Part shown: positions 32,146-51,748 of the stretch, piece by piece
How positions within the stretch are numbered: the first letter of the stretch is position 1
Layout of the letters: each line of letters starts with the position of its first letter
Assembly: GCA_044229975.1 (NCBI GenBank)
Contig: JBGARZ010000016.1
Span: 148,352 to 212,351 of the forward strand
DNA length: 64,000 nt
DNA from: Polyangiales bacterium
GTDB taxonomy: Bacteria; Myxococcota_A; Polyangia; Polyangiales; Ga0077539
Reading direction: 5' to 3'
Notes under the pieces: model-generated
Seen by the model: only the letters and a program-made list of their open reading frames with translations
What the model was told of the DNA's origin: nothing
Databases searched by the model: none
Position numbers and translations under genes: made by a program

Positions 32146-32252
32146 GGGCAGCCGTAGGGAAAGACCGCGATGCGGGCTGCCGATGTGCGAGGGGATTGAC
32201 CAACCCGCGACGCGGGTAAGGCGACCAGGCATGCCGACGAGGTCGACGTTCA

Positions 32253-34825: not shown

Positions 34826-34959
34826 GCCAATAAGAGGTCCAACGGGGCACCGTCGTCGGCACGGATCGGCTCGGGGTTACCGATTGCCCAGACCGCGAAG
34901 TACAACTCGGGCGGACGACGTGTACGGAGCTCCCGTTGCCCCCGCTGGAGAGCTCGCTG
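34826..34959 (-). mobile_element. 134-bp mini-element copy 1 (CAG/hairpin end to IS91 oriIS-like end)
   Basis: Same length as, and homologous to, 41120-41253 and 43824-43957; minus-strand end CCCCGTTGGACCTCTTATTGGC. Confidence 0.75.
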
Positions 34960-35008
34960 GCGGACGACGTGTACGGAGCTCCCGTTGCCCCCGCTGGAGA
35001 GCTCGCTG
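34960..35008 (-). repeat. Exact 49-bp tandem duplication of the CAG-proximal part of the mini-element
   Basis: Identical to 34911-34959. Confidence 0.9.
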
Positions 35009-35588
35009 GCCGCTGGCCTTCGTCGGTCACCACCAGCCACGCGCCGAGCTCTTCCGAGTACGCCGGACCGTCGCCCGTGTACTCCAGCCGAAACTCCTCC
35101 GTTCGCGTGCGACGCCACACCTGCAACGCCCACGGCCCGCCCATCAGCCCACGGCCACGCCGCTCGGGGTCGAAGATCCACAGCTCCCGCGTGCCGCTCG
35201 CGGCGTACTTCAGCGGGCCCTCGTTGTAGTCCTTCTTCGCCGTGTCGCGGCTCACCACCTCGGCCGCCACCCGCGGCGGCGCGTGGCCCGCCTCCCACGT
35301 CAGGATGCTTCGCGCCGCCTTCGGTAGCGCCGGCGCCACGAGGTACACGTCCGGGTCGACGCCCACGCTGGCGTGCGACTCATCCCAGCGCAGCGCGATG
35401 TCCTCTCCCGCCGTCGCATCGAGGCCCGTGCGCGCGATGAACGCCTCCAGCACCTCCCGCAGCAGCGTCGTCGTCCTCAAGTGCTCCGGGGTCACGGGCA
35501 TGGTCACGCCGTCCTGGAGCACCCACCGCTCGGACCACCGCGGGGCCTCGAACACCACGTCCACCCCGCGCGGATCCCTCGTCGCCAT
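35009..35588 (-). pseudogene. Uma2-family endonuclease-like gene, 5' part (C-terminus replaced by mini-element)
   Basis: VDPDVYLV, PRVAAEVVS..TAKKDY..LKYAASGTRELWIFDP; breaks after TDEGQR. Confidence 0.85.
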
Positions 35589-35755
35589 GCTGCTCACGCT
35601 ACCACCCATCGCAGCAGGCGTGCCATCACGGGACACCGAGAAAACAAGCTCTTCAGCTCACCGCCGCCATGGCGGCGGGGGTGGCGGCGGGTGGCACGTG
35701 GGGTGGACGTTTCACGAGGCGATCGGGCAGTAGGGCGCCTCACGTGGTCGCGGAC

Positions 35756-35889
35756 GCGGTGCCTGCGCGGTGCGAGGGCGACGGGGGGTGGAGCGTTGGA
35801 ATCGGTCAGGACGGCGCCACCGGAGCGCTTGGGAACTTCTCCTCCGCAGTGGGGAGCAGTGCGAGCGAGCGCTCTGCGACCGACGGGCG
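35756..35889 (+). repeat. Copy of transposase-downstream motif plus CAG-started unit (second subfamily)
   Basis: GCGGTGC-N30-GCGTTGGAATCGGTCAG matches the minus strand downstream of the transposase; caggacggcgccac.ggagcgct and ctgc.accgacgggcg recur at 37829-37867. Confidence 0.65.
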
Positions 35890-35912
35890 GACACGCCGCT
35901 CTGAACGTCACG

Positions 35913-35944
35913 GACCTCCTGACACCGATGGATGTCAGGAGGTC
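35913..35944. terminator. 12-bp stem hairpin downstream of lipoprotein gene
   Basis: gacctcctgaca / tgtcaggaggtc; no clear U-tract. Confidence 0.45.
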
Positions 35945-35973
35945 GATGTCGACCGTCTTCTTCAGTCCCCGCC

Positions 35974-37716
35974 TCAGTCCTCGTCGCTGACCTGCTCGGT
36001 GCGGTCGATGGTTCCGTCGCCGTTGTCGTCGTAGGTCACGGTCATGGGCATGCCGTTGCCGGCCCAGCTCCCGAAGTTGACGAACATCACCGCCGCCGCC
36101 GAGGCCGTCACGCCCGCGTGCTCGAACACCACCGCGCCCGAAGCGGACACCCGCTCGACGTACAGCTCGAAGGTGGGCGCCGCGGCGCTGCCGTCGAAGC
36201 TCACGCGCGCGCGGTTCATCGCGAAGTCCACCGAGAGGCGGAGGTTTTGCCCCGCGGTCATGGACGTGGTGCGCAGCTCGATGAGGTAGTCGTCGCCCTC
36301 AGACTGGTACGCCAGCGAGAGCGTCGGGGTCTCGGTCCCCCCGGAGCGGTACAGCAGGTCGGGCGGGCCCGGCTGAATCACCAGCGTGTCGCGCTGCATC
36401 GGGTCGATGTTCACGCCGTCGAGGCCGAGGGTCCAACCCGCGCCCTGGAAGAGCAGCTCGCTCTGCGTGGCCGTCGCGAGTCCGGCCCCATCGAGGGTGA
36501 TGGTGAGCGGCGTGGCGCGCGGCACGCTGAACACCGGGTCGGGCCGCGACAGGTTGCCCGGCATGCGGAGCGACACCCGCGAGTCCGGGATGTTGGTGAC
36601 GATGCGGCCGTCGGCCCCGACGGAGGTGCTGCGTGACATGCCGTCGGTCACCGTGACCTGGCTGTTGCCCACGGTGTTGATGCTGATGCGGGTCGCGCCG
36701 CCGCCGTCCATCGCGCGGTTCTGCCAGGCGGTGTTCGGGTGCGGGAGCGCGAGCCGAGGCCCGGCGTCGCGAATCTGGATCGGGAACGTCGTGTCCGTGC
36801 CGCTCCACTCCGCGTCGGGCATGGAGGGGTTGAGCGCGGCGCGGTAGCGCCAGGTGTTGGCGGCGGTGTCGATGGTGATGAAGCGCTCGGAGTCGGGGTG
36901 GTTGTTGTCGTAGACGAGCACGTCGACGACGGTGTCGCTGCGGCGGCGGATCGCGTACGGCAGCACCGAGTGGCCGCCGGCGGCGGCGAAGATGCCGATG
37001 GCGGTGCCGAGGAAGGCCCGCCCGCGGGCGAACTCGGTCGTGAGGTGGGTGACGAGTTCGCGCGGCGACATCGTGCGCGAGGGCGCCACCATCGGGTCGA
37101 CGGTCGACTGGGTGATGGCCCAGAACATCAGCTCGCGCTCGACGGTGTTGTTGAGCGGGAGGGCGAAGGCGTTGGTGCCGCCGAAGGTCATCGGGGCGAT
37201 GCTGCCCGCGTAGAGGTGCGCCGCGAAGATGGAGTAGCCCTCGCAGTTGCCCTCGTGGGCGCCGTTGTTCTCGGCGTCCATCCACTGCCGCGCGTTGGGG
37301 ACGAGCACGCACGCGCCGGTGGCGTTGGCGCCCTCGCAGACGCTCGTGCCGAAGAGGCGGCGGAGGTTGTCGGCGTCGAGGCGCGCGGTGACGGGGGTCT
37401 CGCCGGCGCGGCTGGTTCCGCGGTTGGGGAAGCTGAAGCCGTTGGGGTTGGGGCGGAAGCCCCAGTCGGGCATCGTCGGCGTAGCGCCGTCCGTCGGAGC
37501 GGTGCCTACGTCGGTGGGAGTGGTGCCTGCGTCGGTGGGCGTGGTGCCTGCGTCGGCGGGCGCGGTGCCTGCGTCGGTGAAGCCGGCGTCTGGCTTCTTG
37601 CCTGCGTCCGACGGCGTCGTGCCCGCGTCCTGAACCGTCGCCGGGTCAGTGCCGCAAGCCGCTAGGGAGAGCATCGCGGCGGTCAGGAGTCGATGTCGGG
37701 CGCTGTTCGTGTTCAT
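35974..37716 (-). CDS. Lipoprotein with putative papain-like Cys-His-Asp/Asn peptidase domain
   Basis: LAAC lipobox, DAGTTPT repeats, GFSFPN, GNCEG, GHSVLPY, VYDNNHP, C-terminal DDNGDGTID. Confidence 0.75.
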   Translation of the reverse strand: MNTNSARHRLLTAAMLSLAACGTDPATVQDAGTTPSDAGKKPDAGFTDAGTAPADAGTTPTDAGTTPTDVGTAPTDGATPTMPDWGFRPNPNGFSFPNRGTSRAGETPVTARLDADNLRRLFGTSVCEGANATGACVLVPNARQWMDAENNGAHEGNCEGYSIFAAHLYAGSIAPMTFGGTNAFALPLNNTVERELMFWAITQSTVDPMVAPSRTMSPRELVTHLTTEFARGRAFLGTAIGIFAAAGGHSVLPYAIRRRSDTVVDVLVYDNNHPDSERFITIDTAANTWRYRAALNPSMPDAEWSGTDTTFPIQIRDAGPRLALPHPNTAWQNRAMDGGGATRISINTVGNSQVTVTDGMSRSTSVGADGRIVTNIPDSRVSLRMPGNLSRPDPVFSVPRATPLTITLDGAGLATATQSELLFQGAGWTLGLDGVNIDPMQRDTLVIQPGPPDLLYRSGGTETPTLSLAYQSEGDDYLIELRTTSMTAGQNLRLSVDFAMNRARVSFDGSAAAPTFELYVERVSASGAVVFEHAGVTASAAAVMFVNFGSWAGNGMPMTVTYDDNGDGTIDRTEQVSDED

Positions 37717-37828
37717 GGAGTTGCCTCGGCGAGTCGGTGATGGAGTCACCCTCTGCCCATCCGGTAGCCCGGTCGCCCTCCCTTGAGAATCTAGAATAAA
37801 TTCGATCGCCCTCGGCGCGCGGGATCTC

Positions 37829-37910
37829 CAGGACGGCGCCACGGGAGCGCTCTGCAACCGACGGGCGAATCTGCGCCTGCGAGGGTGCCCTGTTGGAATA
37901 TCTGTTCGCC
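37829..37910 (+). mobile_element. Diverged short mini-element (CAG start, oriIS-like end)
   Basis: aatctgcgcctgcgagggtgccctgttgga aligns 24/30 with copy-3 gatctgtgccagcaaggttgccccgttgga; ends CTGTTCGCC vs CTGTGAGCC. Confidence 0.6.
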
Positions 37911-38031
37911 TCGACCCGACCTACGCCGGGCACACCTTCGGGCTCTGGCTCGTAGGGGTCACCGCGTCCGCGGTCGGCGGTGACGCCCTCTACCGAACGG
38001 CCTTCGACGCGTACTCCTCGCGGCGCACGAT

Positions 38032-39375
38032 TCAGTTCGCCGCCGCCGCGCCCTCGACGCGCGCCTTCGCGCCGAGCGGGATCGTCGCGCGCACCAGCGT
38101 CCCCCCCGTCGATGCGGCGGTGACCGAAAGCTCGCCCCCGAGGCTCGAGACCCGCTCGCGCATCCCCACCACGCCTCGCCCCGGGCGGATGGGGCCGTGC
38201 TCGTCCGTCGCCCCGTCGTCGGCGATCTCCAGCGTGAGCGCGTCGCCTCGGCGCTCGAGCGACACCGACACGCTCGTAGCGCGGGCGTGTCGCGCGACGT
38301 TGTTGAGCGACTCCTGCGCGACGCGAAACGCCACCAGGCCCACCTGGGCGTCGGGCTCGGCGCCGAGGTCCACCGCCACCGCCACCGCGCACGCGGTGCG
38401 CTCGCGGTGGTGGCGGCCCAGCCAGTGGATCGCGCACTCCAGGCCCTCCTCGTCGAGGATGCGGGGGCGCAGCGACTCCAGGATCGCCCGCACGCTCCCG
38501 TGTGATCGCTCGATGGCCCCGGCCATGCGCTGGAGCCCCCCGAGCTGCCGCTCGTCGCGGGTGTACGCGCGCATCGCCTCGACCTCCAGCCGCAGGGCCG
38601 TGATCTCCTGGCCGAGGTCGTCGTGGAGCTCGTGCGCGAGGCGCCGCCGCTCGACCTCGAGCACCTCGTCGAGGCGCATCGCGAAGCTTCGGATCTCGCT
38701 GGTCTGGGCCTCGACGCGAGAGCCGAGCTCGGCGTTGAAGCGCTCGAGCTCTCGCCGCAGCCGGAGCTCGTTGACCAGGGACTCCCGCTGAATGCGCGCG
38801 ACGATCACGGCGAGGAGGGTGAACATGAACACCAGGACCACGTTGTGGTTGCGAAGCAGGGGCGAGGTCTGCACCGCTACGATGCCCGCCGCGAGAACGG
38901 CGCTGTTGGCCACGGCCACGCCGTAGAACCACGTTGCCGGAAAGCGGATCGCGAACGGCGTCGCGAGCAGTAGTGGGGGGTACTGCCCCAGGTTGCCGTG
39001 GAGGGCCTGGGCGTTGATCGCCAACAGCGCGACGTGCGACAGCGCGATGAGGTTGATGATCGGGCCGATGCGGTCGGCGACGGCGCGCGCGGGGCCGCGG
39101 TTGATCGCCGCGCACAACAGCGCGACCGTGTACCCGATGGTGGCGGCCCCCAGGAGGATCACGGCGCCGTGCCGCCAGGCCCGCTCGAGCTCCGTGGTGA
39201 CCGCGATGCGCGCGTAGAACAACGTGAGGCCCGTATGCAGCGCCAGCACCACCGGGCCCCAGGCTCGGGCGCGCCTGAGGTTGATCGCGCGGTCCTGTTG
39301 GGCGAGCTCGGCGCGGGCCCCGGCGTCGAGCGCCCGCTCGGGGTTGAGCAGGAGGAGGAGGCGTTCGAGTCCCAT
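38032..39375 (-). CDS. Membrane sensor histidine kinase (HisKA_3 / NarX-UhpB type)
   Basis: Multiple TMs, ERRRLAHELHDDLGQ, LRPRILDEEGL, QESLNNVARHA, G.GVVGMRER. Confidence 0.92.
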   Translation of the reverse strand: MGLERLLLLLNPERALDAGARAELAQQDRAINLRRARAWGPVVLALHTGLTLFYARIAVTTELERAWRHGAVILLGAATIGYTVALLCAAINRGPARAVADRIGPIINLIALSHVALLAINAQALHGNLGQYPPLLLATPFAIRFPATWFYGVAVANSAVLAAGIVAVQTSPLLRNHNVVLVFMFTLLAVIVARIQRESLVNELRLRRELERFNAELGSRVEAQTSEIRSFAMRLDEVLEVERRRLAHELHDDLGQEITALRLEVEAMRAYTRDERQLGGLQRMAGAIERSHGSVRAILESLRPRILDEEGLECAIHWLGRHHRERTACAVAVAVDLGAEPDAQVGLVAFRVAQESLNNVARHARATSVSVSLERRGDALTLEIADDGATDEHGPIRPGRGVVGMRERVSSLGGELSVTAASTGGTLVRATIPLGAKARVEGAAAAN

Positions 39376-39474
39376 GTCGAGGCGCCCGGTCACGGCCGCG
39401 ATGTTAGACCACATCTAGCGCGGTACCCCGGAAGGGTGGCGCCGTTGGCCCTCCAGCGTCGGGAGGGGTCAGCT

Positions 39475-40071
39475 CTAGGCGCCGGTGATTCCATGGCGTG
39501 CAGCGTACTGGGCTACGTCGAAGGTCGAGCGGACGCCGAGCTTCTCGCGCACGGCCTTCAGGTGTGTGCTCACCGTGCTCGGGGCCATCTCGAGATCCCA
39601 GGCGATCTCCGACGGGGTGAGGCCGCGGGCGAGGGCGAGGAACACCTCCCGCTCGCGCGCAGAGAGGCGCTCGTGGGGGAGCTTCGCCGCGGGGCCCTCG
39701 TGGGGCTCCGTCGCGCGCGTGTCGAGCACGGCGTCGCGCAGCGCCGCGAGCGGCTCGGACTTCGAGACGTACGCCGACGCCCCCGCCGCGAGGGCCCACG
39801 CGGCGTACTCCTCCGCGGGGTACATCGAGTAGATCACCACCCGCAGTCTGGGCTGCTGCGCGCGCACGTCGCGCAGGAGGTCGGTGCCTGAGCGCCCCGG
39901 GAGCGACAGGTCGAGCACCAGCACGTCCCACTCGCTCCGCGCGGCGAGTTCGAGCACCGCGAGGCCGTCGCCCACGGAGCCAGCCCACGACAGCTCCGGG
40001 ATGGTGTCGAACCACGCGTGCAGCCCCTCGCACACGATGGCGTGGTCGTCGGCGACGAACACCCGGATCAT
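39475..40071 (-). CDS. NarL/LuxR family response regulator
   Basis: VADDHAIV, LDLSLPG, LSAREREV...STVSTH. Confidence 0.93.
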   Translation of the reverse strand: MIRVFVADDHAIVCEGLHAWFDTIPELSWAGSVGDGLAVLELAARSEWDVLVLDLSLPGRSGTDLLRDVRAQQPRLRVVIYSMYPAEEYAAWALAAGASAYVSKSEPLAALRDAVLDTRATEPHEGPAAKLPHERLSAREREVFLALARGLTPSEIAWDLEMAPSTVSTHLKAVREKLGVRSTFDVAQYAARHGITGA

Positions 40072-40334
40072 CCGGCGCTCCGCGTCGGGAGCGCCACCGA
40101 CAACCGGGTGCCCGCCGGCACGACCCCGTCATCGTCGAGCATGCGCGGGCGCAGCGACTCCATCTCCAGGCGCATGGCGGTGAGCTCCTGGCCGAGGTTG
40201 TCCTGGAGGTCGCGGGGCCAGAGCGCGACGGTGAGCGCGTCGCCCGCGAGGCACACGGTGCGGGAGAGCGCCCGGCTCTGCGCGTCGGCGACCGTCGCGA
40301 AGTCGTCCGGGGCGCTGGCTTCGTGGTGGGGCAT
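40068..40334 (-). pseudogene. Internally deleted histidine kinase remnant
   Basis: RDLQDNLGQELTAMRLEM | ESLRPRMLDDDG | GTRLSVALP fused in frame; stop overlaps the regulator ATG. Confidence 0.7.
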
Positions 40335-40410
40335 CGGCTCGTGGGGGATTGGGGTGTAGATCCCGCGAATCCTCGACCGCTGTCAACGCGGGCCGGGGAG
40401 TCGCCGTCGA

Positions 40411-40716
40411 TCACATGGTGGGCGCGGGCACCGCGAAGGTGGGGAGCGCGCGGGTGGTGGCGGTGATGGTCAAGGTGGTCATCTGCCCGACGGTGCTCAT
40501 CGGCGCGTAGCCCGCCTCGTTGCTGCCGACCACGAGGCCCTGCACGTCGCCGCTAAGCATGGCCTGGTTCAGTCGCGAGGTGAACTGGTTCCCGTCGACG
40601 TCCGAGAGCACGGAGGTGATGATCACGGGCTCGCTGAAGCGCACCCGCGCGATGAGTCCCCAGTAGACCGTGCCGTCCCCCCGCGGCGGGAGGTGCGCGA
40701 AGGCCGGAGCGGTCAT
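40411..40716 (-). CDS. Small hypothetical protein or gene fragment
   Basis: 101-aa ORF with GC3 bias, directly after the Uma2 stop. Confidence 0.45.
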   Translation of the reverse strand: MTAPAFAHLPPRGDGTVYWGLIARVRFSEPVIITSVLSDVDGNQFTSRLNQAMLSGDVQGLVVGSNEAGYAPMSTVGQMTTLTITATTRALPTFAVPAPTM

Positions 40717-40727
40717 CGGCGCGAGGC

Positions 40728-41119
40728 TCAGCCGGTGCGACCGGTGAGCGCCTCAAGCCGCGTGCGTAGCTGGGCCACCTCGGCTTGGGCCGCCTCCTTC
40801 GCCGCGCGTTCGGTCTCCTTCGCCGCGCGCTCCTCCTCCGCCACCGTCAACCACAGCCTCTCGCCCGCCTCATCGTCGGCGATGCGCAGCCGCTGGCCTT
40901 CGTCGGTTACCACCAGCCACGCGCCGAGCTCTTCCGAGTACGCCGGACCGTCGCCCGTGTACTCCAGCCGAAACTCCTCCGTTCGCGTGCGACGCCACAC
41001 CTGCAACGCCCACGGCCCGCCCATCACCCCACGGCCACGCCGCTCGGGGTCGAAGATCCACAGCTCCCGCGTGCCGCTCGCGGCGTACTTCAGCGGGCCC
41101 TCGTTGTAGTCCTTCTTCG
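40728..41119 (-). pseudogene. Uma2-family gene, 3' part (N-terminus replaced by mini-element)
   Basis: Starts at KKDYNEG, keeps the coiled-coil tail and stop; 40889-41119 duplicates 35009-35239 with 2 mismatches. Confidence 0.85.
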
Positions 41120-41253
41120 GCTCATAGGAGATCCAACGGGGGAGCCTTGCTGGCACGGATCCACCGGAGCTTACAGATCGCCCAGACCGCGAAGTACAAC
41201 TCGGGCGGACGACGTGTACCGAGCTCCCGTTGCCCCCGCTGGAGAGCTCGCTG
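41120..41253 (-). mobile_element. 134-bp mini-element copy 2
   Basis: Minus-strand CAGCGAGCTCTCC...CCCCGTTGGATCTCCTATGAGC joined directly into Uma2 coding sequence. Confidence 0.8.
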
Positions 41254-41391
41254 GCGAGGTCAGCGTCGTCGTGCAGTGATCGCGTAAGGTCAGCAGGCGA
41301 TGGTTCGGCCGACGGCTCGTCCTTCGCGGGCGACAGACCGAGGATCACGAACTGGTCGGAGCGCTTCGGCAGAAGGCTAAGGAGAACAAGC

Positions 41392-42000
41392 ATGATCGCA
41401 GCTGATTGGGTCGCACGGCTCCGTGCGTACGTCGCCGAACGGAACCTCGCGCGCCCGGCTCTCGACGACAACGCGCTCAACGCCCTGGAGCGCTGGCAGT
41501 ACCGGATCCACGGCGGGTTCATGCAGACGTGGCTGCGGAAGCACGGCCCGCAGATGCTCAACGAGCGCGCGGCCTTCGCCGAGCTGCAACGGCGCGTCTC
41601 CCCCAATCCCGTCGTCGTTGCGCACGGCGACGTCCCCTTCGCGGTGGCGATGCGCGTCCTCGTCGGGGACGCCGGCCTGCGCGGCGAAGGGCGCGTGGTC
41701 GTCCTCCTCGACGACGAGTACGAGCGGTTCATGGCGGCGAACCCCGAGGCGGGCGCCGACGACGATCGCGAGTTCGACTTCCACGTGTCGACGTGGTCGC
41801 GGTTTGCGCCAGCTCCTCCGGCTCTGCTCGAACGGGCGCGTGAGCTTGGCAAGGCCATCGACCCGTCGGGCGCGTACCTGAATCACGTCAACGGCACGCT
41901 GTGGGCACCGCGCTGCGGGTTGCAGGTCGAGAACCTCTGGTCGTGGAACGGCACCGAAATGCACCTCATCGAGGAGGGCATTGCGCACGTTCGCTACTAG
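41392..42000 (+). CDS. Hypothetical protein (cargo)
   Basis: AGGAGA RBS, ATG, 202-aa protein-like ORF. Confidence 0.75.
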   Translation: MIAADWVARLRAYVAERNLARPALDDNALNALERWQYRIHGGFMQTWLRKHGPQMLNERAAFAELQRRVSPNPVVVAHGDVPFAVAMRVLVGDAGLRGEGRVVVLLDDEYERFMAANPEAGADDDREFDFHVSTWSRFAPAPPALLERARELGKAIDPSGAYLNHVNGTLWAPRCGLQVENLWSWNGTEMHLIEEGIAHVRY

Positions 42001-42022
42001 AGCGGCGGGCGGCCGGACCGCG

Positions 42023-42547
42023 TCACTTCGCCCAGATCCGATAGACGGCCCGCTCGAAGCGGCCGAACTGCACCCGCACCTGCTCGCCCTCGCGCAGCCG
42101 CTCGAACGCCCCGCCGCTCGGGTGCAGCGCCTCGCCCGCCACCGTCGCGCAGTACATCACACCGCCCTTCCCGGTCGGGATCGTGCGCAGGTCGCTGACC
42201 GTTCCCTCGGCGATGCGCCGCGTGATCAGCAGGTCGAGGCCCATTCCCCCGCCGCTCTTCAGCAGCACCCACGCGAGCCACAGGCCGAAGACCTCCGCCA
42301 CCACCATCCCCAGCACCGAACCGACCGCCGCGAGGTGACGTCCGTCGCCCCACCGCCGCGCGATCTCTGCGAAGGGCAATCCCATCACGATCGGAACCGT
42401 CGCCCCCGCGAGCAGCACCGCCCCGAAGGGCACCATCATCAGCGCGCCCATCACGTCGAAGAACACCCATCCCACGCCGCGCGACCACACGAGCTGCCAG
42501 CGGTCATCCGGCGTCGCAGCCTCGCGGTAGCGGTCAGCCTTCTGCAT
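42023..42547 (-). CDS. Small membrane protein (cargo)
   Basis: Hydrophobic segments then short beta-rich tail; start MQKADRYR. Confidence 0.7.
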   Translation of the reverse strand: MQKADRYREAATPDDRWQLVWSRGVGWVFFDVMGALMMVPFGAVLLAGATVPIVMGLPFAEIARRWGDGRHLAAVGSVLGMVVAEVFGLWLAWVLLKSGGGMGLDLLITRRIAEGTVSDLRTIPTGKGGVMYCATVAGEALHPSGGAFERLREGEQVRVQFGRFERAVYRIWAK

Positions 42548-42570
42548 CGGCGCCGACTCTATCCCCAAGC

Positions 42571-43725
42571 TCACATCACGTTGCGTTCGCGGTAGGCATC
42601 TTCGAAGTCCTGACTCCAGCCGGGCCGATGTGGCGTCGCGCGGATGCCTTGCGCGACGCCGAAGTAGAGGTGCGCGAGCATCGCGACCGCGGCGACTTCC
42701 CAATGCGGGACGTGCAGGTTGGCCACGTCCGCCAGGCGGACCGCGAGGTCGTCCACGCAGGCCGTACGGCGCCGGAGCCACGGCGTGAGACTCGCTTCCA
42801 CCCAGCGGTCGTACTCGACGACTGTGGTCGGGGCGGGCGCCAGATCGTCGCGTCGCAGACACGCGTCGGAGGCCCGCCGTGCCAGTCGGAACTGCGCCTC
42901 CGCGAAGGCCGCCAACCGGATGCGCCCATCGTCGTCCGCGATGTTTCCGTTGGCGTTGGTGTGGTCGATGCCCGACTCGGTCATCACGTTGAAGGGCGAG
43001 ACCACGCCCATGGAGCCACCTCGTCGGCGCGCCTCGCGCTCCTCCGCCCGTACGCGCTCGGCTTCGCGTCGACGCTCCGCGCGAGGGTCCACCATCCCCA
43101 GCGCCGCGAACGCGACGGGCCACCGCGCGTCGGCCGCCTCCCAGCTCCGCGCCGCGCCCCTGAGATCGCCCAGCGCCTCGTACGCGCGGCCGAGCCCCAC
43201 CAGCGCCCGCGACTGCACCAGCCACTGCGACCGCGCCGGGAACCGCCGCGCGAGCGCGTCGTACCATTGGCTCGCCTCGGTCCATTGGTGACCCGCTTCG
43301 AGCGCGGCGCCCACCGTGAAGGCCGTCTCGACGGCCGCATCGCGCGACGCGACGAGCTGCCACCGCGCGTCGGCCTGCGCGCGCGACAGCTCGCCCAGCG
43401 CGATGCGAAACTCCACCGCCCGCCCCATCGCGACGACCACGCGGTCATCGGACGAGTGCTCAGCCGCGCGCTCGATGAGCTCGGCGGCGCGGGCGAAGTC
43501 GCCGATGGCCTCGTGGTCGGCGGCCAGCGCGAGCTCGTTGTCGAGCGATCGGGCGTCGCGGGGACACTCCAGCAGCGAAGTGCGCAGGGCGATCGCGGCG
43601 CCGGGCCGGTGGGCCTGCTCGGCGCGGAGGGCGCGTTGGTGGTCCGCCGCGTCGCACGCACGAGTGACGCGCGGGACGAGCGACAGCAACGACAGGACGA
43701 CGACCGTACGAAGCGAGGGGCTCAC
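42571..43725 (-). CDS. Exported TPR-repeat protein (cargo), possibly C-terminally truncated
   Basis: Signal peptide, repeated Ala/Leu TPR-like helices (ALVGLGRAYEALGDLRGA). Confidence 0.65.
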   Translation of the reverse strand: MSPSLRTVVVLSLLSLVPRVTRACDAADHQRALRAEQAHRPGAAIALRTSLLECPRDARSLDNELALAADHEAIGDFARAAELIERAAEHSSDDRVVVAMGRAVEFRIALGELSRAQADARWQLVASRDAAVETAFTVGAALEAGHQWTEASQWYDALARRFPARSQWLVQSRALVGLGRAYEALGDLRGAARSWEAADARWPVAFAALGMVDPRAERRREAERVRAEEREARRRGGSMGVVSPFNVMTESGIDHTNANGNIADDDGRIRLAAFAEAQFRLARRASDACLRRDDLAPAPTTVVEYDRWVEASLTPWLRRRTACVDDLAVRLADVANLHVPHWEVAAVAMLAHLYFGVAQGIRATPHRPGWSQDFEDAYRERNVM

Positions 43726-43823
43726 CGACCGTCCAACGGCGGGCGCGGCGTGGTTGTGACCGGCGCTCTTCGCGACCGACGCGGCGCCCTCGCTCCAACA
43801 CAGCGGGTACCCGAAGAAGCTCG

Positions 43824-43957
43824 GCTCACAGGAGATCCAACGGGGCAACCTTGCTGGCACAGATCCACCAGAGTTTACAGATCGCCCAGACCGCGAAGTC
43901 CAACTCGGGCGGACGACGTGTACCGAGCTCCCGTTGCCCCCGCTGGAGAGCTCGCTG
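43824..43957 (-). mobile_element. 134-bp mini-element copy 3, about 105 bp downstream of the transposase stop
   Basis: About 7 mismatches to copy 2 by eye; preceded by GCGTTGGATTCGGT|CAG. Confidence 0.8.
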
Positions 43958-44061
43958 ACCGAATCCAACGCCTCGCACCCGGCGCGCGCTCCCCTCCGCG
44001 CGCACCGCGGCCTTCATCGTCCCGTCAGCGACGGTCAACGGCTCCCGGCCCACCCCCTCGC

Positions 44062-44680
44062 CTACAACCCGGCCGGCGGCCCGTCGCGTACGCGTCTCAT
44101 CCGCGGCACCTCGGTCGAGACGCCGAGGTGCTCCAACACGCGCACGATGCCAGCCCGCTCGATGAGCGCTGCGATCATCTTCATTCGCCCGCCGCACGCC
44201 GGGCACGCGAGCGCGTCGATGCCCCACACACGCCACAAGAGACGCGCCCACTCGATGCGCCCGCTCTGCGTGATCGCGTCGCTGTTGCCGCGACGCTTCG
44301 ACTCGCTCACTGCGCCCCTGGCGTTGACGTTCTCCGGCCGCTCCATCGCCGACACCGCCGGCGCCGTCGTCGCACACGGACACCCGGCGTCGGCCACCGG
44401 CGGCGGAACCACCGCGACGCGCCAGGGAGAATTCGGCGCGAGCACGCCGTGGTACCTCACCAGCGGCGTCCGCGGCGGCGGCACCAGCGCCGCCAACCGC
44501 GCCATGAACTCCATCGGCGTCATCACCCGGTGCGTCGCCCGGCGCTCCGCGGCGACTTCACCCGGTAGGCCACGTTGCCGTCGGGCAACACGCTCACCCG
44601 ACCGCTCGCCACCGCTGGGCGCGCCATGTACCGGCACAGCCGCTCCAGCGCCGTGCGGTCGTCTGCCGCGGCGCGCATCC
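44062..44680 (-). pseudogene. IS91/ISCR-family rolling-circle (Y2) transposase, C-terminal remnant with frameshift
   Basis: DDRTALERLCRYMARP, EFMARLAALVPPPR..LVRYHGVLAPNS, WARLLWRV..IDALACPACGGRM; frame change at ~44539; no N-terminal HUH part seen. Confidence 0.88.
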
Positions 44681-44830
44681 GCCGCGTCGACAGGTCACCG
44701 TCGTGGACTGCGAACGTGACCGCCGCGCGCCGCGCTGACGCCGCGGCGTGGGCCCCGGGGACCGGGGCCGTGGCAGACCCGCGTCGCCTACTCCGAACGT
44801 CAGCACCTCGGCGTAGCTTCGTGACGGCTC

Positions 44831-46291
44831 TCACTGCGGGTTTTCGATGAGGACGCCGAGCAGCTCCAAGATCTCGCTCGACGTCGTCTTCCCCGCCGGC
44901 GGGTTGCCTTCCCCGTCGCGCGCCGTCGGGTCGGCGCCTGCCGCGAGCAGCGCTCTCACGATCTCGACGTGACCGCGCGCGACTGCGGTGTGCAGTGGCG
45001 ACACGCCCTCGATGTTCACGGGCACGCCGTGCGCGAGAAGCGCCTTCGCGGTGCCGACCGCGCCGGTGTGCGCGGCGTACGTCAGCGCGTTCCAGCTCCC
45101 CTGCGTGTCGCTCGGATTGGCGCCGCGCGCGAAGAGCAGCGCCAGAAGGGGGCCCGGAGCGCGAGACCGCGCGGCGAGCAGGAGCGGCGTCCAGCCGGTG
45201 TCGTCCTTGAGCCGAACGTTCGCGCCGGCGCGCACGAGGGCTTCGGCGGACGCGAGCTGCCATGTCCCACCCCACGCGAGAGCGTCGTGCAGAGGTGTGT
45301 CGTTCGAAGCGTCGAGCGCGTCGACGTCGGCACCGCGCCGCAACAGAAGCGCGATCACCTCTTCGCGTGAGCGTGCACGCGCGCCCACCGACGCCGATAC
45401 GCTCGTCTCCGCGGCCGCCAGGATGAGGTTTGCGATCGGCCTCGGTTCGCCGACGGCCCAATGAAGCGGCGTCTTGCCCGCGCCGTCGCGAAGATCGACG
45501 CTCACGTCGGCATCGAGCTGCGCCGCGACACCGGCGACGTCGCCGTTCGCTGCGAGCGCGTGGATCGGCGCACCGAGACCGTTCGGGTGTGCGGCGTCGA
45601 TGTGTCGGTACAGGGCGGCCCCTGCTTCGAACTCCTCGCGCCGAAGTGCGAGTTCGAGCGCCGTCTGGTTGCAGTCGCCGTCGCGAAACCAGACATCCGC
45701 GCCGTGGTCGAGGAGCAGAGTCAGGACGCCGACGTGGGTATCACGCGCGGCGTAGTGCAACGGACGACCGTGAAAGTCGCCGAAGCGATTGGGATCGGCG
45801 CCGTGGGCGAGGAGAAAGCGAACGAGCTCGAGGTCGTTCGCGTCGACCGCGAGGATCAGCGGTGACTGCCTCCCGAGACAGTCGCTGACGTCACCCGCGA
45901 CATCGAGCGCGGCGCCGCGGTCGACGAGGTAGCACGCGACCTCGCGCGCTCCGTGCGCCACCGCGAGAACCAACGGCGTCGACCCGGTCTCTTCGTTCAG
46001 GACGTCGACCTTCGCCCCTGCTTCGACGAGCAGCCTCACGATTCCGAGGGTCGAGTCCTGGGTCGCGGCGTTCACGAGGGGCAGATCGCCGAACTCCGCC
46101 GCAGGGTTCGGATCGGCGCCGCCACGAAGTTGCGCCGCGACAGCAGCTTCGTCCTCGTCGACGACGGCTTGGAGAAGCTTCTCGGCGGAGTCGGCGGCCA
46201 CGAGTGACAGCGTACCCGCGATCAGCCGCGATTTCGCTTCGGAGGACGGGCGAACCGGCTCGCCTCTGGTTGCCCCGCGGGCCCTCGCCAC
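44831..46291 (-). CDS. Ankyrin repeat protein
   Basis: Many TPLH/GADPN/GADV repeats; start uncertain. Confidence 0.9.
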   Translation of the reverse strand: MARARGATRGEPVRPSSEAKSRLIAGTLSLVAADSAEKLLQAVVDEDEAAVAAQLRGGADPNPAAEFGDLPLVNAATQDSTLGIVRLLVEAGAKVDVLNEETGSTPLVLAVAHGAREVACYLVDRGAALDVAGDVSDCLGRQSPLILAVDANDLELVRFLLAHGADPNRFGDFHGRPLHYAARDTHVGVLTLLLDHGADVWFRDGDCNQTALELALRREEFEAGAALYRHIDAAHPNGLGAPIHALAANGDVAGVAAQLDADVSVDLRDGAGKTPLHWAVGEPRPIANLILAAAETSVSASVGARARSREEVIALLLRRGADVDALDASNDTPLHDALAWGGTWQLASAEALVRAGANVRLKDDTGWTPLLLAARSRAPGPLLALLFARGANPSDTQGSWNALTYAAHTGAVGTAKALLAHGVPVNIEGVSPLHTAVARGHVEIVRALLAAGADPTARDGEGNPPAGKTTSSEILELLGVLIENPQ

Positions 46292-46304
46292 GACTCTGTG
46301 CGCT

Positions 46305-48809
46305 TCACCCCTTCACCGCCGCGTGCACCGCCGCCAGCGCGGGCGCCACCTCCGTCGCGTGATCGCGCAGCGTCGCGCGCAATCGGGCCGGTGTGAGCCG
46401 CGCGTCGGGCAGCAGTCGCTCCAGCAGCTCGATGGCGTCGGCCTTGCGCGCGAGCTCCGATCCGCCCAGCAGTGCGACCACCTCGGCCACCGACGACAGC
46501 GCGCACACGGCCGCCTCGACGTCGCCGTTCGCGAGGCGCGGGCGACGCCCCTGGTGGGCCTTGACCGCGACGCCACCCGCCGGCTCAGGGAACCACCGTG
46601 CGAAGCGGGCCGCGATCGCCACCCGGTCGCGGTTGGCCGCTTCCAACCGCGCGCTCGCTCCCTCGCGTCCGTCGTGCCTGGCGTCGCTCGCGTCGAGCTC
46701 GCGCAGCGCCCGCGCCTCGTCGTCGAGGCGCTGCAACACGCCCGACTCGCGCGCCCGCTCGATCGCCACCAGCTCATCCACCAATGGGCCGAGCTCACCG
46801 GAGAGCTCGCGCGCCACCACGCTCGCCGGCCGCGACGCCGAGTCTGGCAGGTGCAGCGCGACCCCGCCGTCGAGCTCGCCCGCGGTGATCGACGCGAGCT
46901 GAGCGTCGTCGAGGTGGTGGTAGAACGCCACCTCACCCGCGGCCCGCTGCCGCGCGACCAGGGCACGGAGCGCGGGGTTCTCCGTGCCGAGCGCGATGAC
47001 GCTGACACCGAGCGGCAGTCCCTCACACTTCGCTCTCGCCACCGCCACCAGCTCTTCGTCGACCGCGGCCTCGCCGTCGGTCACCAACACGAGCTGCGCG
47101 TGGGTGAGCTCGCGATCGACGGCGCGCGCCTCGGCGACCTGTTCGAGGCTCGCGATGAGGGCCTTCTGGATGTTGGTTCCGCCCCGGCGTGTCGTCGTCA
47201 GGACGTCGCGCATCGCGGCGCGGGCGCCCTCCACCGAGTCGACGCGCGTGACGGGCAACAGGCCCTCATCGAAGTACCGAAACAGCAGCGTGGCGCGGGT
47301 GTCGCCGGGCGCCGCGAGGCGCGCCGAGAGCGTCGCGAGCTCGGCTACGAGCAGGGCATCGCGCACGTGACCGCGAGGGCCCGCCATGGAGGTCGATCCG
47401 TCGAGCACGAAGACGCGCACCTCGCTCCGCATCACGACGCGACTGCGCCGCTGCGGCTCCGGCCGAACGTAGCGCCGCGTGAGCAACCGCCCCGTCACGA
47501 GGTCGAGCAGCACGCTGCGCGGGTCGGAGATGCTCGCATCCGGGAGGTCGTCGACCCCCTCCGCCGGAACCAGCACCAGCGTCTGCGTGGGGAAGCGCAC
47601 CGCCCGCAGCACCCGCTCCTCTTCGTCGACGCGCACCGGCGCGAGCGCTCCGCCCACCTCGAAGCAGCCGTCCACCGTCACCGTGGCGGCGAGCACGCCG
47701 CGCTCGGCGCCCTCGGCGTACGCCTCGCGCAGCAGGTGCTCGGCGTCTTCGCGAACGCCCTGTGACTCCGACGAGCGCGCGATGGTGGCCCTCGCTTCGC
47801 GGCGCGCCTCCTTCATCGCCTCCTCGACGAGGCCGACGCCGCCTTCGCCCAGCATCGCGCCCGCCGAGCGGCGCAGCGACGCGCGTCGTGCCGTCACGCT
47901 CCGCGGGTCTTCGCCGCCCCACAGCGCCTGGGTGGCGCGCGACGTCACCCGCGCGACGTCGTGGTCGTCGTTGGCGAGCGCCGCGGCGTCGACGGCCGAG
48001 AGCGCGGCCCATAGCCGTCGCGGGTCGCCGCGGTCGATGGCGGCGCGGGCCTGGTGGACGAGCGACACGTCCGCCGCGAGGCCGATGGACTCCAGCCGGT
48101 CGACGCGGGTGATCTCGCGGGTGACGTAGTCGGCGCGGGCGCGAACGCCGTGCGGTTCGAGCGGGAGCGCCGCCGACACGTCGAGCAGGCGTTGCCGCGC
48201 TGCCACCAGCAGCCGTCGCTTGCGCCCGAGGAAGCCCACCTCCGCGCGCGCCGCGGCGAGCAGGTGGTCGATGGCGGCGAGCTCCAGCTCCACGATGCGC
48301 GCATCGGCGTGGGGGACGGCACCCTCCCGCGTCGCCACTTCGCACGCAAAGGGGTCGACCTGCGTCGTGTCGGCGCTCTCTGCCTCGCGCGCTGGGAGGA
48401 GCGCGAGCGGAGGCGCAAAGACCACCCGATCGCCGTGGCTGAGACGCTGTCGCGCGAGGGCGTCGTCCCGATCGAGCAACCCATCCACCGCGACGAGGAG
48501 TTCCCAGGCGCGCCGCAGCCACGCGGCGTGGGCCACGGGCGCACGGTCCCGCAGGATCGCCGCGCGCTCGATGGTGGTGACGTTGGCTTCGAGCTCGTCG
48601 ACGGCCGCCTCGAGCCTCGCCCGCGCGCCCGTGTCCGCGAGCCGCTCCAACAGCCGCGTCAGGGCCTCGTAGCGAACGGTCGCGCGCCAGCGGGTGAGCG
48701 CCAGCACCGGCCGCGCGACGCGAAAGAGCCGCTGCGCTTCGATGCCCGCCGGGTCGAGCGCGACCCGCTCGATGCGCTCGGCGAGGCGCTGCAACCGTTC
48801 GCTGGTCAC
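46305..48809 (-). CDS. VWA domain-containing protein (partner of MoxR ATPase)
   Basis: MIDAS VLDGSTSM, GGTNI, LVTDGE. Confidence 0.85.
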   Translation of the reverse strand: MTSERLQRLAERIERVALDPAGIEAQRLFRVARPVLALTRWRATVRYEALTRLLERLADTGARARLEAAVDELEANVTTIERAAILRDRAPVAHAAWLRRAWELLVAVDGLLDRDDALARQRLSHGDRVVFAPPLALLPAREAESADTTQVDPFACEVATREGAVPHADARIVELELAAIDHLLAAARAEVGFLGRKRRLLVAARQRLLDVSAALPLEPHGVRARADYVTREITRVDRLESIGLAADVSLVHQARAAIDRGDPRRLWAALSAVDAAALANDDHDVARVTSRATQALWGGEDPRSVTARRASLRRSAGAMLGEGGVGLVEEAMKEARREARATIARSSESQGVREDAEHLLREAYAEGAERGVLAATVTVDGCFEVGGALAPVRVDEEERVLRAVRFPTQTLVLVPAEGVDDLPDASISDPRSVLLDLVTGRLLTRRYVRPEPQRRSRVVMRSEVRVFVLDGSTSMAGPRGHVRDALLVAELATLSARLAAPGDTRATLLFRYFDEGLLPVTRVDSVEGARAAMRDVLTTTRRGGTNIQKALIASLEQVAEARAVDRELTHAQLVLVTDGEAAVDEELVAVARAKCEGLPLGVSVIALGTENPALRALVARQRAAGEVAFYHHLDDAQLASITAGELDGGVALHLPDSASRPASVVARELSGELGPLVDELVAIERARESGVLQRLDDEARALRELDASDARHDGREGASARLEAANRDRVAIAARFARWFPEPAGGVAVKAHQGRRPRLANGDVEAAVCALSSVAEVVALLGGSELARKADAIELLERLLPDARLTPARLRATLRDHATEVAPALAAVHAAVKG

Positions 48810-48811
48810 AA

Positions 48812-49119
48812 CGATTCACCCCGTGGACGTTCGCGAAGTAGGGGCCGGGGTTCACGGTGCAGGCTCCGCGTCCGTCGGGCTCCGTTCACCCCGGTCAATG
48901 GTAGGGGGTCACCCCGCCGCTGCGCGACGGGGTTGCAAACCCGAGATCCATCACGCTCCTGACCGACGAGAAGCGTGGGGCAATGACTTCCGTTGCAACC
49001 CCGTCGCGCAGCGGCGGGGTGACCCCCTACCATTGACCGGGGTGAACGGAGCCCGACGGACGCGGAGCCTGCACCGTGAACCCCGGCCCCTACTTCGCGA
49101 ACGTCCACGGGGTGAATCG
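48812..49119. repeat. Perfect 127-bp inverted repeat with 54-bp spacer (MITE/REPIN-like)
   Basis: 48812-48938 is the exact reverse complement of 48993-49119. Confidence 0.95.
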
Positions 49120-49126
49120 GTCTCAC

Positions 49127-51748
49127 TCAGCGGCTCACTCGCCGAGCGGCCGTGTCGAGCAGCGTCGTCCAACCAGCGTCGGAGCGCCCGCGTTGCAGCG
49201 CCACCAGCACCCGGCTGGACTCCGCCTCGACGGCCTCGATGCGCGCCCGCAGCGCGTCGGTGGCGGCCGCTGCCTCGGCGAAGACCTCGCCGATGACACG
49301 AGCCTCGATGGCAAAGCGCAGCAGCGCTCCCTCGTCACGCGTCACGTGAAAGAACCTGCTCCCCGCGAGCGTGGGCAGCGCCGTTCCGATGAGCGTGGCG
49401 CTGCCCGACGAGAGGGCGGTCTCCGCCGCGGGACCGAGCTCGGCCCACCAGCGCTCGACGAGCGAGACGGCTCGCTCGACGCGCGCGACGTCCAGCGCGA
49501 CGACCTCGGCGCGGAGCTCGGCGGGCAGGTCGGCGAGGGTGGCGCCGAAGCGCGTGAGCATCTCGGCGGGCGATCCCAGGTCGGTGGCCCTCGTGGGCGC
49601 GATGCGCAGGCCGAGCTCGACGAGGGTGTACGCGAGGGACACGCGGGCCGACCCCGCGCGGAGCTGGCGATACCCGGTGTGCGAGGGCGGTTGGGTCTGG
49701 GTCGATTGCGTGCCGCGTTCGCCGCGGACGAGGGCGAGGGTGGCGAGCCGGATGAGGTCGGCCGTCGCGATGACGCCCTTCAATCCCGCGCGATCGAGCT
49801 CGTCGACGAGGGCGCCCACCTGCGCGACCAGGTCCGGTCGGTCGGTCGCCTGGACACGCTCGAAGGCCGCGCGGACCAGCGGCTCGATGCGCGGCCCCAC
49901 CACGCGACCCTTGAGCGCCCAGCGGTCGGCGCCGCAGCGCGCGAGCCTCTCGCCGAAGCCGTCGATGCGCTGGAGCACCGGAACCAACCGCCCCAGCAGC
50001 TCACCGAGCTTCTCCGGTCCGACCTCGGCGAGCGCTCGCGCCACGGCGTCACGGAACGCGACGTCCCACACCTCGACGAGCTCATCTTCCACCCGCGCCA
50101 CGGCCACGGCGGACGCCCGCTCGAAGCTCTCCGGCCCGCTGTCGTCGGCGCCCGCGGCGCGGAGCTTTGCGGCGGTTTCCAGCAGACGTTCGAGGCGCTC
50201 GACGGGGCCCATCGCCCGGCGCGCGACGTCGTCGAGCGAGGCGTCGACGGGGAGCAGCCCATCGAGCGCCGCGCCCACGCGCGACCCCGCCAGCGCGGCC
50301 GTGTCGAGCACCATCCGGATGGCGCGCGCCCGCAGCCATCGGGCGGTGGGACGGGCCGCTCCGCCCGATGCTTCGAGGCCGTCGGCCAGCGACGAGAGCT
50401 CGCCGATCACGTCGACCTCCGTGGCGCTCGCGCCCGCGGTGATGCCGGCTCGCAGCGCGCGCTCGGAGAGGTGCGTGAGGGCGGTGGCGAGCAGCTCGGC
50501 GGCGGCGGGTGCCGTCGGTCCCCCGGAGTCGGCGGTGTGGGCGAGGGTGGCGGCGGTGGCGAGCAGCGGCCGCGGGTCGGCGACCGGCACTGCGGCATCG
50601 ACGGACTGCTGGAGCGCGGCGACGTCCCGCTCGATGCTGGGCCGCGAGGCGCGCTCGGTGCGCGGGACGCGGGCGAGGGCGCGCTCGAACATCTCCCGCT
50701 CGGTTCGCAGGATGGAGAGCTGCCGACGTTCGCGGGGGTCGCTCTCCTTGTCGATGAGCGCCGTGAGGCTCTCCCGCGGCGGACCCGAGAGCAGGAGACT
50801 CAAACGCAACCCGGCGAGGTCGTCGTGGCCGACCTCGAGCTCGCGCGTGGGGTTGCGCATGATGGCGTCGTAGAGGCAGACCGCGCGCAGGATGCGCCCG
50901 AGGCGAACGGCCGTGCGGGTCGAGAGGTAGCGAGTGGGTGTGAAGGTGGGGTCGCTCTTGGCGGCGTGGGCGAGGTCGCGGTCGAGGTGTTCGAGGAGCG
51001 CGCAGAGCGAGCCGCAGACGGCGTCGGGCACGACGATGCGGTCGGCGGTGGCCTGGAGCACGTCGAGGTCCTGGATGGTGAGGTTGGCTTCGAGCGAGCG
51101 GGCTCGGACGCCGCCGACCTGCGAGCGCAGCACGCGGCCGAGGCTGTCGGGCGACGCGAATCCCTTGGGGACGAAGCCCACGAAGGCGATGCGATCGACG
51201 AAGGCGAGGAGCGTCTCGCGCGACCCGTCGAGCACCTCGGCGAGGTAGCGGTTGGTGGTCATCAGCGCGCACTCGATGGCGCCGCGGGTGGTCTTGGCGC
51301 CCTGCTTCAGCTCGCGCTCGTGCAGCACGTTGAGGGTCGTGCGCAGCAGCATGTCGCGGCCGTCGAGCACCTCGTCGAGGAAGGCGTGGACGGCGCCGAG
51401 CATGCCTTCGTCGGTGAAGTGCTCGGTGCGCCCGGTGGCCATGAGGGTCTTGAAATCGATGGGACCAACAAGGTCGGTCTGCACCGTCGACTCGGTGAAC
51501 TGCCGCGCGAACAAGCTGGGCTGCCCGGTGCGCTCGTCGACGATGCGACCGAGGACGGCTGCGGCGATGCCGCTCTTGGCGGTCCCGGGCGGGCCCGTCA
51601 TGAGGACGTGCTCGCGGCCGAGGAGGGCCATGGCGATCTGCGCGAGCAGGTCTTCGCGCTCGACGAAGGTGCGGTTGAGCTCCTCGAAGAAGGAGCGGAA
51701 GCGGGCAGAGGCAGCGGCGAGGTCCGCCGAGGCGGTGGAGAGCGTCAC
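49127..51748 (-). CDS. MoxR/RavA-like AAA+ ATPase with long helical C-terminus
   Basis: EHVLMTGPPGTAKS, AFLDE, LNVLHER, AFVDRI, LSTRT. Confidence 0.9.
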   Translation of the reverse strand: MTLSTASADLAAASARFRSFFEELNRTFVEREDLLAQIAMALLGREHVLMTGPPGTAKSGIAAAVLGRIVDERTGQPSLFARQFTESTVQTDLVGPIDFKTLMATGRTEHFTDEGMLGAVHAFLDEVLDGRDMLLRTTLNVLHERELKQGAKTTRGAIECALMTTNRYLAEVLDGSRETLLAFVDRIAFVGFVPKGFASPDSLGRVLRSQVGGVRARSLEANLTIQDLDVLQATADRIVVPDAVCGSLCALLEHLDRDLAHAAKSDPTFTPTRYLSTRTAVRLGRILRAVCLYDAIMRNPTRELEVGHDDLAGLRLSLLLSGPPRESLTALIDKESDPRERRQLSILRTEREMFERALARVPRTERASRPSIERDVAALQQSVDAAVPVADPRPLLATAATLAHTADSGGPTAPAAAELLATALTHLSERALRAGITAGASATEVDVIGELSSLADGLEASGGAARPTARWLRARAIRMVLDTAALAGSRVGAALDGLLPVDASLDDVARRAMGPVERLERLLETAAKLRAAGADDSGPESFERASAVAVARVEDELVEVWDVAFRDAVARALAEVGPEKLGELLGRLVPVLQRIDGFGERLARCGADRWALKGRVVGPRIEPLVRAAFERVQATDRPDLVAQVGALVDELDRAGLKGVIATADLIRLATLALVRGERGTQSTQTQPPSHTGYRQLRAGSARVSLAYTLVELGLRIAPTRATDLGSPAEMLTRFGATLADLPAELRAEVVALDVARVERAVSLVERWWAELGPAAETALSSGSATLIGTALPTLAGSRFFHVTRDEGALLRFAIEARVIGEVFAEAAAATDALRARIEAVEAESSRVLVALQRGRSDAGWTTLLDTAARRVSR

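Follow-up and report, generated by a model that had tools for sequence, protein, structure and literature searches.

Ori-end repeats, a conserved internal site, and possible in-place capture of DNA beside IS91/ISCR-type transposases in Polyangiales

INTRODUCTION

The transposases of IS91 proper (IS91, IS801, and IS1294) have two catalytic tyrosines, and ISCR enzymes are said to keep one. Capture of resistance and catabolic genes has been attributed to ISCR elements, its mechanism is poorly characterized, and “sandwich” captures on the side of the origin (ori) end so far rest on single cases. Integrons collect co-oriented units of repeat and cargo beside an enzyme gene, with a special attI site that stays with that gene, and Helitrons capture gene fragments by rolling-circle transposition, with a target rule that applies 3′ of the nick. 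Here we analyze a 64,000-nucleotide stretch of a Polyangiales genome (the window; contig JBGARZ010000016.1, positions 148,352 to 212,351), in which three copies of a 134-bp unit separate blocks of cargo genes beside a remnant of an IS91/ISCR transposase. The unit is likely to be a seam left by capture of DNA in place, rather than a free mini-transposon.

IS91 is described as capturing DNA beyond terIS, by failed termination, and as using the targets CTTG, GTTC, and CTCG (PMC13181058). For IS801, ori-end fragments of 229, 360, and 679 nt were released in vivo from the full-length IS91-family element (Bardaji et al. 2011, PMC3189936). In the ISCR28 “sandwich,” armA is reported to be trapped between a remnant oriIS and the element's own oriIS (Yuan et al. 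2024, as described in PMC12772301). Further sources on known relatives are PMC6354349 and PMC5737581.

RESULTS AND DISCUSSION

Ori ends of an IS91/ISCR-type element

The three copies are co-oriented and 85 to 95% identical in pairwise comparison (Table 1), and this similarity is not due to chance, because copy-versus-copy E values are 1e−37 to 1e−55 (reference, a 10-Mb genome). A reading of the window from sequence only, made before this analysis, had placed the copies at the same coordinates and had given them a CAG start and a CCCCGTTGGAnnnnYTRTnnGC end on the minus strand; both features are seen in all three. It had also put the third copy about 105 bp behind the stop of a Y2 transposase remnant, and the measured distance from the stop at 44062 is 104 bp. 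This Y2_Tnp remnant has a frameshift near 44541 and is without an HUH or zinc domain. Because the transposase is a remnant, the window array is now inert in cis.

The host genome (G000; 10 Mb, 71% GC) gave 26 profile matches at E < 1e−3, 15 of them near full length, on eight contigs. Two open-frame transposases on contig C14, of 503 and 528 aa, carry Zn_Tnp_IS91 and Y2_Tnp domains, both passing the Pfam cutoffs. The same unit stands downstream of the 503-aa gene at about the same distance as in the window, so that the intact IS91-type transposase with the same end that had been anticipated from the window exists in the same genome as an open-frame HUH protein. Because the unit follows this gene and the coding strand of some ori variants terminates in CCTATACCC, like the oriIS of ISCR1 (PMC13023784), the 134-bp unit is the ori end of an IS91/ISCR-type element. 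The earlier assignment of such an end downstream of the transposase is thereby borne out by position and by the ISCR-like terminus. The outer end reads G-N3-ATARG-N4-YCAAC, its initial G being partly built into the search pattern.

Across 18 transposase homologues, H182 and H184 (HUH) are invariant, as is a single tyrosine in R313-L-x-R316-Y317 (RxxRY); two invariant tyrosines, as in IS91 proper, were not found among them. The designation “Y2” therefore stands as the Pfam name Y2_Tnp and not as a count of catalytic tyrosines. Transposase homologues are labeled Deltaproteobacteria or Polyangiales. Upstream of the transposase genes, where a terIS palindrome would be expected, an CCCGCCGCCA repeat or GCCGCCATGGCGGC motif recurs, without a sharp boundary.

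A conserved internal site outside the unit

From G000 and from loci fetched around matches in related genomes (relatives are numbered with the prefix G and fetched loci with the prefix L), 205 distinct ori ends were assembled. With a loose regular expression for the ori, G000 gave 383 matches and the control gave 482, and it was replaced by a weight matrix (0 control matches); the ori pattern has 232 matches versus 19 in the control, some of them chance matches in coding sequence.

Among the loci listed from relatives, a near-invariant GCGTTGGAWTCGST/CA (a slash marks the junction) stands behind the transposase stop, followed by a variable stretch and then by the ori. We call the 22 of 205 ori ends with an internal site on their transposase side masters; all 22 master units of the genus end at this site, TG/ASCSRWTCCAAC, while the distance from site to ori varies from 100 to 180 bp. 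The internal-site pattern has 48 matches versus 0 in the control and occurs in 9/9 genus genomes. The junction motif is TG/ACCGAATCCAAC in masters and TG/G in free units: the next base is G in 91 of the 99 free copies with a clear end, and the next two are GC in 73. In the window, the core of the site, ACCGAATCCAACG, is present behind unit 3 and absent behind units 1 and 2.

The sequence-only reading had proposed that a hairpin together with the CAG acts as a cryptic terminator. A GAGCTC hairpin is present in the window copies, complete copies show no folding beyond that of shuffled sequences (z of −0.1 to −1.6), and the last 40 bases of the 22 master units share no hairpin (mean z, −0.4), so that this proposal is not upheld. 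Because the internal site is conserved while unit length varies and the hairpin is not conserved, the conserved signal lies outside the unit, on its transposase side, where it stays with the transposase; free copies have lost it. The 12-bp motif is kept across transposases that are only 49% identical, while the unit itself varies, and the CCAAC core of the ori is repeated in it, nearer to the cut (7 versus 13 bases). The internal site was also considered as an independent origin and ruled out, as 29 of the 32 exact core matches tallied come after TG.

In other taxa, 80 loci were fetched, of which 38 were testable and 9 had a short downstream copy of the ori end. In three further Myxococcota genomes with the internal motif, the downstream copy begins exactly at the site (3/3). 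In another Myxococcota genome (L226) and in an acidobacterial one (L237), downstream ori-end copies begin 9 bases from the first letter of TTGAAT, a word similar to the ori core; this is possibly the same design with other spacing.

Arrays beside master copies

Neighboring ori ends within 10 kb of each other are co-oriented in 79 of 96 pairs, at a median spacing of 2.5 kb. For 49 pairs of units that share an array, the median identity is 0.975, as against 0.64 for 432 pairs from elsewhere in one genome, and arrays of 98 to 100% identical units span 19 to 26 kb. Copies matched to a master by family are on its ori side in 14/18 cases, and only there for eight of nine masters; the four off-side copies are all on one contig, G002:C76, whose array has six units. 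On G002:C9, four 121-bp copies, two of them forming a head-to-tail dimer, are 98 to 100% identical to a master 13 to 19 kb away. Unit dimers were found twice and terminal repeats four times.

The 90 cargo open reading frames (ORFs) scanned are miscellaneous, with no functional theme, and are often cut mid-gene. That units separate unrelated cargo, first noted in the window, is seen genus-wide. The comparison with an integron-like tandem array made at that time is apt insofar as units stack with unrelated cargo and fails insofar as, in contrast to integron cassettes, the cut ends of the cargo take no account of gene borders.

An element of about 1 kb with GGCTCATGTTCCCC ends stands inside ori-like or internal-site-like motifs at several sites (G000 C14:48176-49187, C36:290289-291300, and C24:12468; L214:1926-2938; L055), and the L214 copy belongs to the IS1595 family by Pfam. 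It is also present in unit 1 of the strain represented by sequencing run X2 (see below), at window positions 34834 to 34840. Other matches of its end word are not close to such motifs. This insertion sequence seems to target ori and internal-site ends.

Two different junction rules

Empty sites were sought by joining the flanks of 89 free copies, and none was found (0/89; two matches were a dimer matching itself). Both flanks could be mapped for 11 of the 89 copies, and in 11/11 they map to different places. No target duplication was found: donor-mapped junctions share at most 1 to 2 bases. The IS91 target tetranucleotides (CTTG, GTTC, or CTCG) stand 5′ of the ori at only 10 of 205 ends; the 205 ends show only a purine bias (175/205). 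Of 136 units, 45 have CTTG as their inner end.

With 97 inner-end and 199 ori-end flanks queried, the donor base after the junction is G for 9/9 inner-end donors versus 5/17 ori-end donors (P = 7e−4). Because donors follow the G rule at the inner end and mostly do not at the ori end, where simple insertion at R/G would give G at both, each cargo block probably has two ends from different cuts. The sequence-only reading had pictured a free nonautonomous element driven in trans, which the lack of simple insertions (0/89) does not support; the copies are similar to the master next to them and are found on its ori side, a pattern that suggests action in cis.

Several candidates were set aside. A MITE is ruled out, as the unit ends differ (no terminal inverted repeats) and target duplication is absent. 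The 35 nominal junction-spanning tblastx matches are mostly self-extensions or low-identity repeats, and in three matches on the transposase gene (L102, L104, and L108), the donor sequence does not join both flanks.

Proposed capture in place and its rivals

Capture in place and a circle-based scheme both hold that there is a dedicated site and that arrays grow next to the master, and this shared account of the data is probable. The explanation that we favor within it, tentatively and as something just short of an even chance, is that the transposase uses the internal site to duplicate the ori end and to splice 1 to 8 kb of other DNA between the copies, the array growing in place. The steps below draw on general HUH chemistry. 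The enzyme would nick the ori and hold its 5′ G on the tyrosine, and replication would copy the unit from the ori up to the internal site. The new TG-3′OH would then attack a second tyrosine-linked nick, made at R/G(C) in donor DNA, and the far 3′ end of the donor would be joined to the held ori, extending the array on the ori side. Without a donor, the same reaction would yield head-to-tail dimers, and with a unit as the donor, it would yield end repeats of 20 to 49 bp.

The captured donor DNA may be foreign, because four cargo blocks of G002:C9 (L119) are closer to other species' copies (88 to 94% identical) than to those of the host (81 to 90%). This cargo, which includes a kaiB-kaiC block, is either foreign DNA or part of an array transferred as a whole. 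The broader picture, of an integron-like DNA-collecting platform in which a sedentary HUH transposase gene with an attI-like release site splices foreign kilobase pieces behind fresh ori copies, with no cassette site in the donor, is conceivable and, in our estimate, rather unlikely.

A number of observations weigh against capture in place. Loci were fetched around matches in related genomes, so that the counts given here are not independent and are descriptive rather than tests. On G002:C76, an internal master remnant has four of the five copies matched to it on its transposase side. Units also recombine, because crossovers in the conserved core have made chimeras of unit 1 and of the copy at C10:116100, as a circle model predicts. 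The 231-bp Uma2 overlap in the window (Table 1) is not accounted for by a single capture. No strain pair was found in which one array had gained a block, and no circle, intermediate, or activity was observed, the sequencing runs having yielded low-depth contigs only. The empty-site test is itself weak, as two flanks were mapped for 11/89 copies, against donors from other species that are 82 to 99% identical. A site common to G003 and G004 was considered as evidence for growth in place and rejected, being bounded by the junctions of another element.

The circle-based scheme, which we regard as doubtful, holds that the master releases a mini-element at the internal site, the mini inserts at R/G, its ori, with no stop motif behind the unit, reads 1 to 8 kb into the flank, and the circle of unit and cargo recombines at the master through the 120- to 180-bp unit. 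Both junction rules, family sorting, co-orientation, and dimers are accounted for in this way, as are the chimeric units, and the scheme parallels the circle-and-recombine model of ISCR1 (PMC13023784). However, solo insertions are required as intermediates and none was seen among the 89 copies; the scheme survives if they form on transient foreign DNA. In addition, the sister of cargo block B on contig C4 has no unit at either junction. A hopping composite is less plausible still and in our judgment improbable: a mini would land a few kilobases upstream of the ori, and the new ori would move the mini, the trapped DNA, and the element together to a new site, one block being added per move. This is the closest to the view taken from the window alone and to the ISCR28 sandwich; it suits the one-sided arrays of master-like units, the array of G003:C62, which as a whole interrupts a region contiguous in G000, and the in vivo release of IS801 ori-end minis (PMC3189936). 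Yet it predicts outermost or left-behind units with contiguous flanks, of which none was seen, and one target rule for both junctions, which in fact differ.

The arrays might also be debris of one-ended transposition, reshaped by later deletion and recombination in a variable island and without dedicated function. The window transposase is indeed a remnant, orthologous gene order in relatives is missing from about 32.2 kb on, and partial, chimeric, and nested copies are common. Conservation of the 12-bp motif outside a variable unit across such divergent transposases, the long arrays of near-identical units, and inner ends exact to the base make this very improbable. Finally, misassembly around a short repeat is extremely unlikely, even though no sequencing run spans the array: the copies differ by 5 to 15%, the same layout recurs in other assemblies, and a contig of run X2 bridges unit 1 and its repeat. 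The runs gave low-depth contigs that hold at most 10% of the words. In X2, which is independent and of low depth, one contig bridges unit 1 and the adjoining 49-bp repeat; the X2 contigs are from another strain, because they carry an extra insertion. A table of read joints was discarded as noise from other organisms.

Cargo blocks and surroundings of the window array

TABLE 1 Features of the window array (positions in the window; + is the predicted transferred strand)
Feature	Coordinates	Strand	Remarks
Unit 1	34826..34959	+	Ori terminus at 34826
Exact 49-bp repeat of unit 1 inner end	34960..35008	+	TG end joined to internal G of a unit
Cargo block A	35009..41119		Uma2 5′ part, nested second-family element, histidine kinase, response regulator, kinase fragment, Uma2 3′ part
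231-bp Uma2 segment	35009..35239	+	Repeated at 40889-41119, 99% identity
Second-family transposase-less remnant, inverted	35661..35809	+	GC-rich motif (as upstream of the C14 528-aa transposase), then internal site GTTGGAATCGGT/CAG
Predicted lipoprotein, cargo of nested element	35974..37716	−	Lipobox-like LAAC, no Pfam match
81-bp second-family unit	37829..37909	−	CAG start on +, ori terminus at 37909
Histidine kinase, LuxR-type response regulator, and kinase fragment	38032..40334	−	
Cargo block B	41254..43823		Two hypothetical genes and one TPR protein
Unit 2	41120..41253	+	95% identical to unit 3
Unit 3, master copy attached to transposase	43824..43957	+	
Conserved internal site core ACCGAATCCAACG	43958..43970	+	Directly after unit 3 TG end
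IS91/ISCR transposase 3′ remnant	44062..44714	−	About residues 295-503 of C14 protein, 71 to 78% identical

The 3′ half of the chimeric unit 1 is 98% like units 2 and 3, and its 5′ half is 68 to 70% like them. The sequence-only reading had both ends of the array cut sharply into a Uma2 gene without target duplication. The lack of a duplication is confirmed; the Uma2 parts are two different, 99%-identical pieces and not one interrupted gene, and Uma2 begins only at 35009, after the 49-bp repeat. The run X2 contig over 35035 to 35239 has about twice the depth of its neighbors. Uma2 genes recur next to units elsewhere (G002:C148, i.e., L120; L126; L054; and L078), and the G002:C148 array is bracketed by two 97%-identical Uma2 copies. 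Copies of 200 to 470 bp of DNA adjacent to a master or an outer unit recur inside or beyond arrays in the manner of the 231-bp repeat (G000 C14:204243-207127, L053:7068-11736, and L203:4532-6815).

Positions 35661 to 37909 of block A form a nested, inverted second-family array, made up of a remnant with its internal site (at 35795), an interrupted unit, the predicted lipoprotein gene carried as cargo, and the 81-bp unit. The kinase and regulator segment is 91 to 92% identical to copies in G001 and G002, whereas a core segment is at 81 to 83%. Block B has a sister in the same genome (C4:101214-102533) that is without either unit and runs on past both junctions mid-gene; both junctions of block B were mapped to the base against it. 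G000 cargo has sisters within its own genome at 85 to 95% identity, which fits old self-copies and shared mobile DNA alike. The C4 sister of block B and a sister of the lipoprotein gene (C2:115297-115564) are 88 to 95% identical and carry several internal deletions of at least 75 bases.

Gene order conserved with relatives ends near 32150, and none of the five relatives searched offered an empty site for the window array as a whole. Ankyrin, vWA, and MoxR-type ATPase genes (44831 to 51748) have no orthologues in these five. A long inverted repeat between the vWA and MoxR genes (48805 to 49126; 134-nt arms, 98% identical, 54-nt spacer) has about 11 related matches of about 320 bp in the genome. 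The Rfam search of 33 to 50 kb gave only a subthreshold microRNA match, on an unrelated inverted repeat. Where the transposase remnant breaks off, there is a REP-like GC-rich repeat (44655 to 44800) with about 179 genome matches, often in tandem runs of about 53 bp.

Significance and comparison with known systems

Ori-side capture becomes directly testable in this genus through a dedicated site of 12 bp, a pair of junction rules, a transposase with an open frame, and a substrate of 134 bp. If capture needs no donor site, any DNA could become a cassette, a general route to accessory islands, and the reaction might serve as a tool for single-strand DNA insertion. In a literature search, with subscription papers, TnPedia, and supplements outside its scope, neither a conserved internal release site nor multiunit arrays on the ori side were found described. 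This analysis adds a conserved site that lies outside the unit, separate rules for the two junctions, and an absence of simple insertions; the IS801 minis and the ISCR28 sandwich are precedents.

Like IS91, IS801, IS1294, and ISCR1, the element described here has an HUH transposase, a downstream ori with a CCTAT-N4 terminus, and no target duplication (PMC13181058, PMC13023784, and PMC13393415). Unlike IS91 as there described, it gathers cargo beyond oriIS and does not keep the CTTG/GTTC/CTCG rule. The IS801 minis are likewise short, retain the ori, and end at a fixed internal point; however, they are described as stopping without a conserved motif and as simple insertions, whereas here there is a motif, no simple insertion was found (0/89, a search of low power), and cargo arrays are one-sided. 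In ISCR28, too, a captured gene is flanked by two oriIS, one a remnant and the other the element's own, but the published description is of one gene and one remnant, whereas here the units have a fixed length, there is a dedicated internal site, and an array holds up to six units.

Beyond this family, rolling-circle capture of fragments and a 3′-side target rule are shared with Helitrons, but there is no helicase domain here, nor is the conserved stop signal an internal hairpin. No integron integrase was found, there being no recombinase among the 26 ORFs scanned from 30.7 to 51.8 kb, and an attC site was rejected: although an RYYYAAC-like word occurs, it is 13 bases from the junction, and a fold test, made without an attC model, gave no significant fold. 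With integrons the arrays share co-oriented units stacked beside an enzyme gene and one attI-like site; unlike integrons, they have no tyrosine recombinase and no attC fold, and their cargo is multigene and cut mid-gene. The element thus belongs to the IS91/ISCR family and is integron-like in layout without being an integron.

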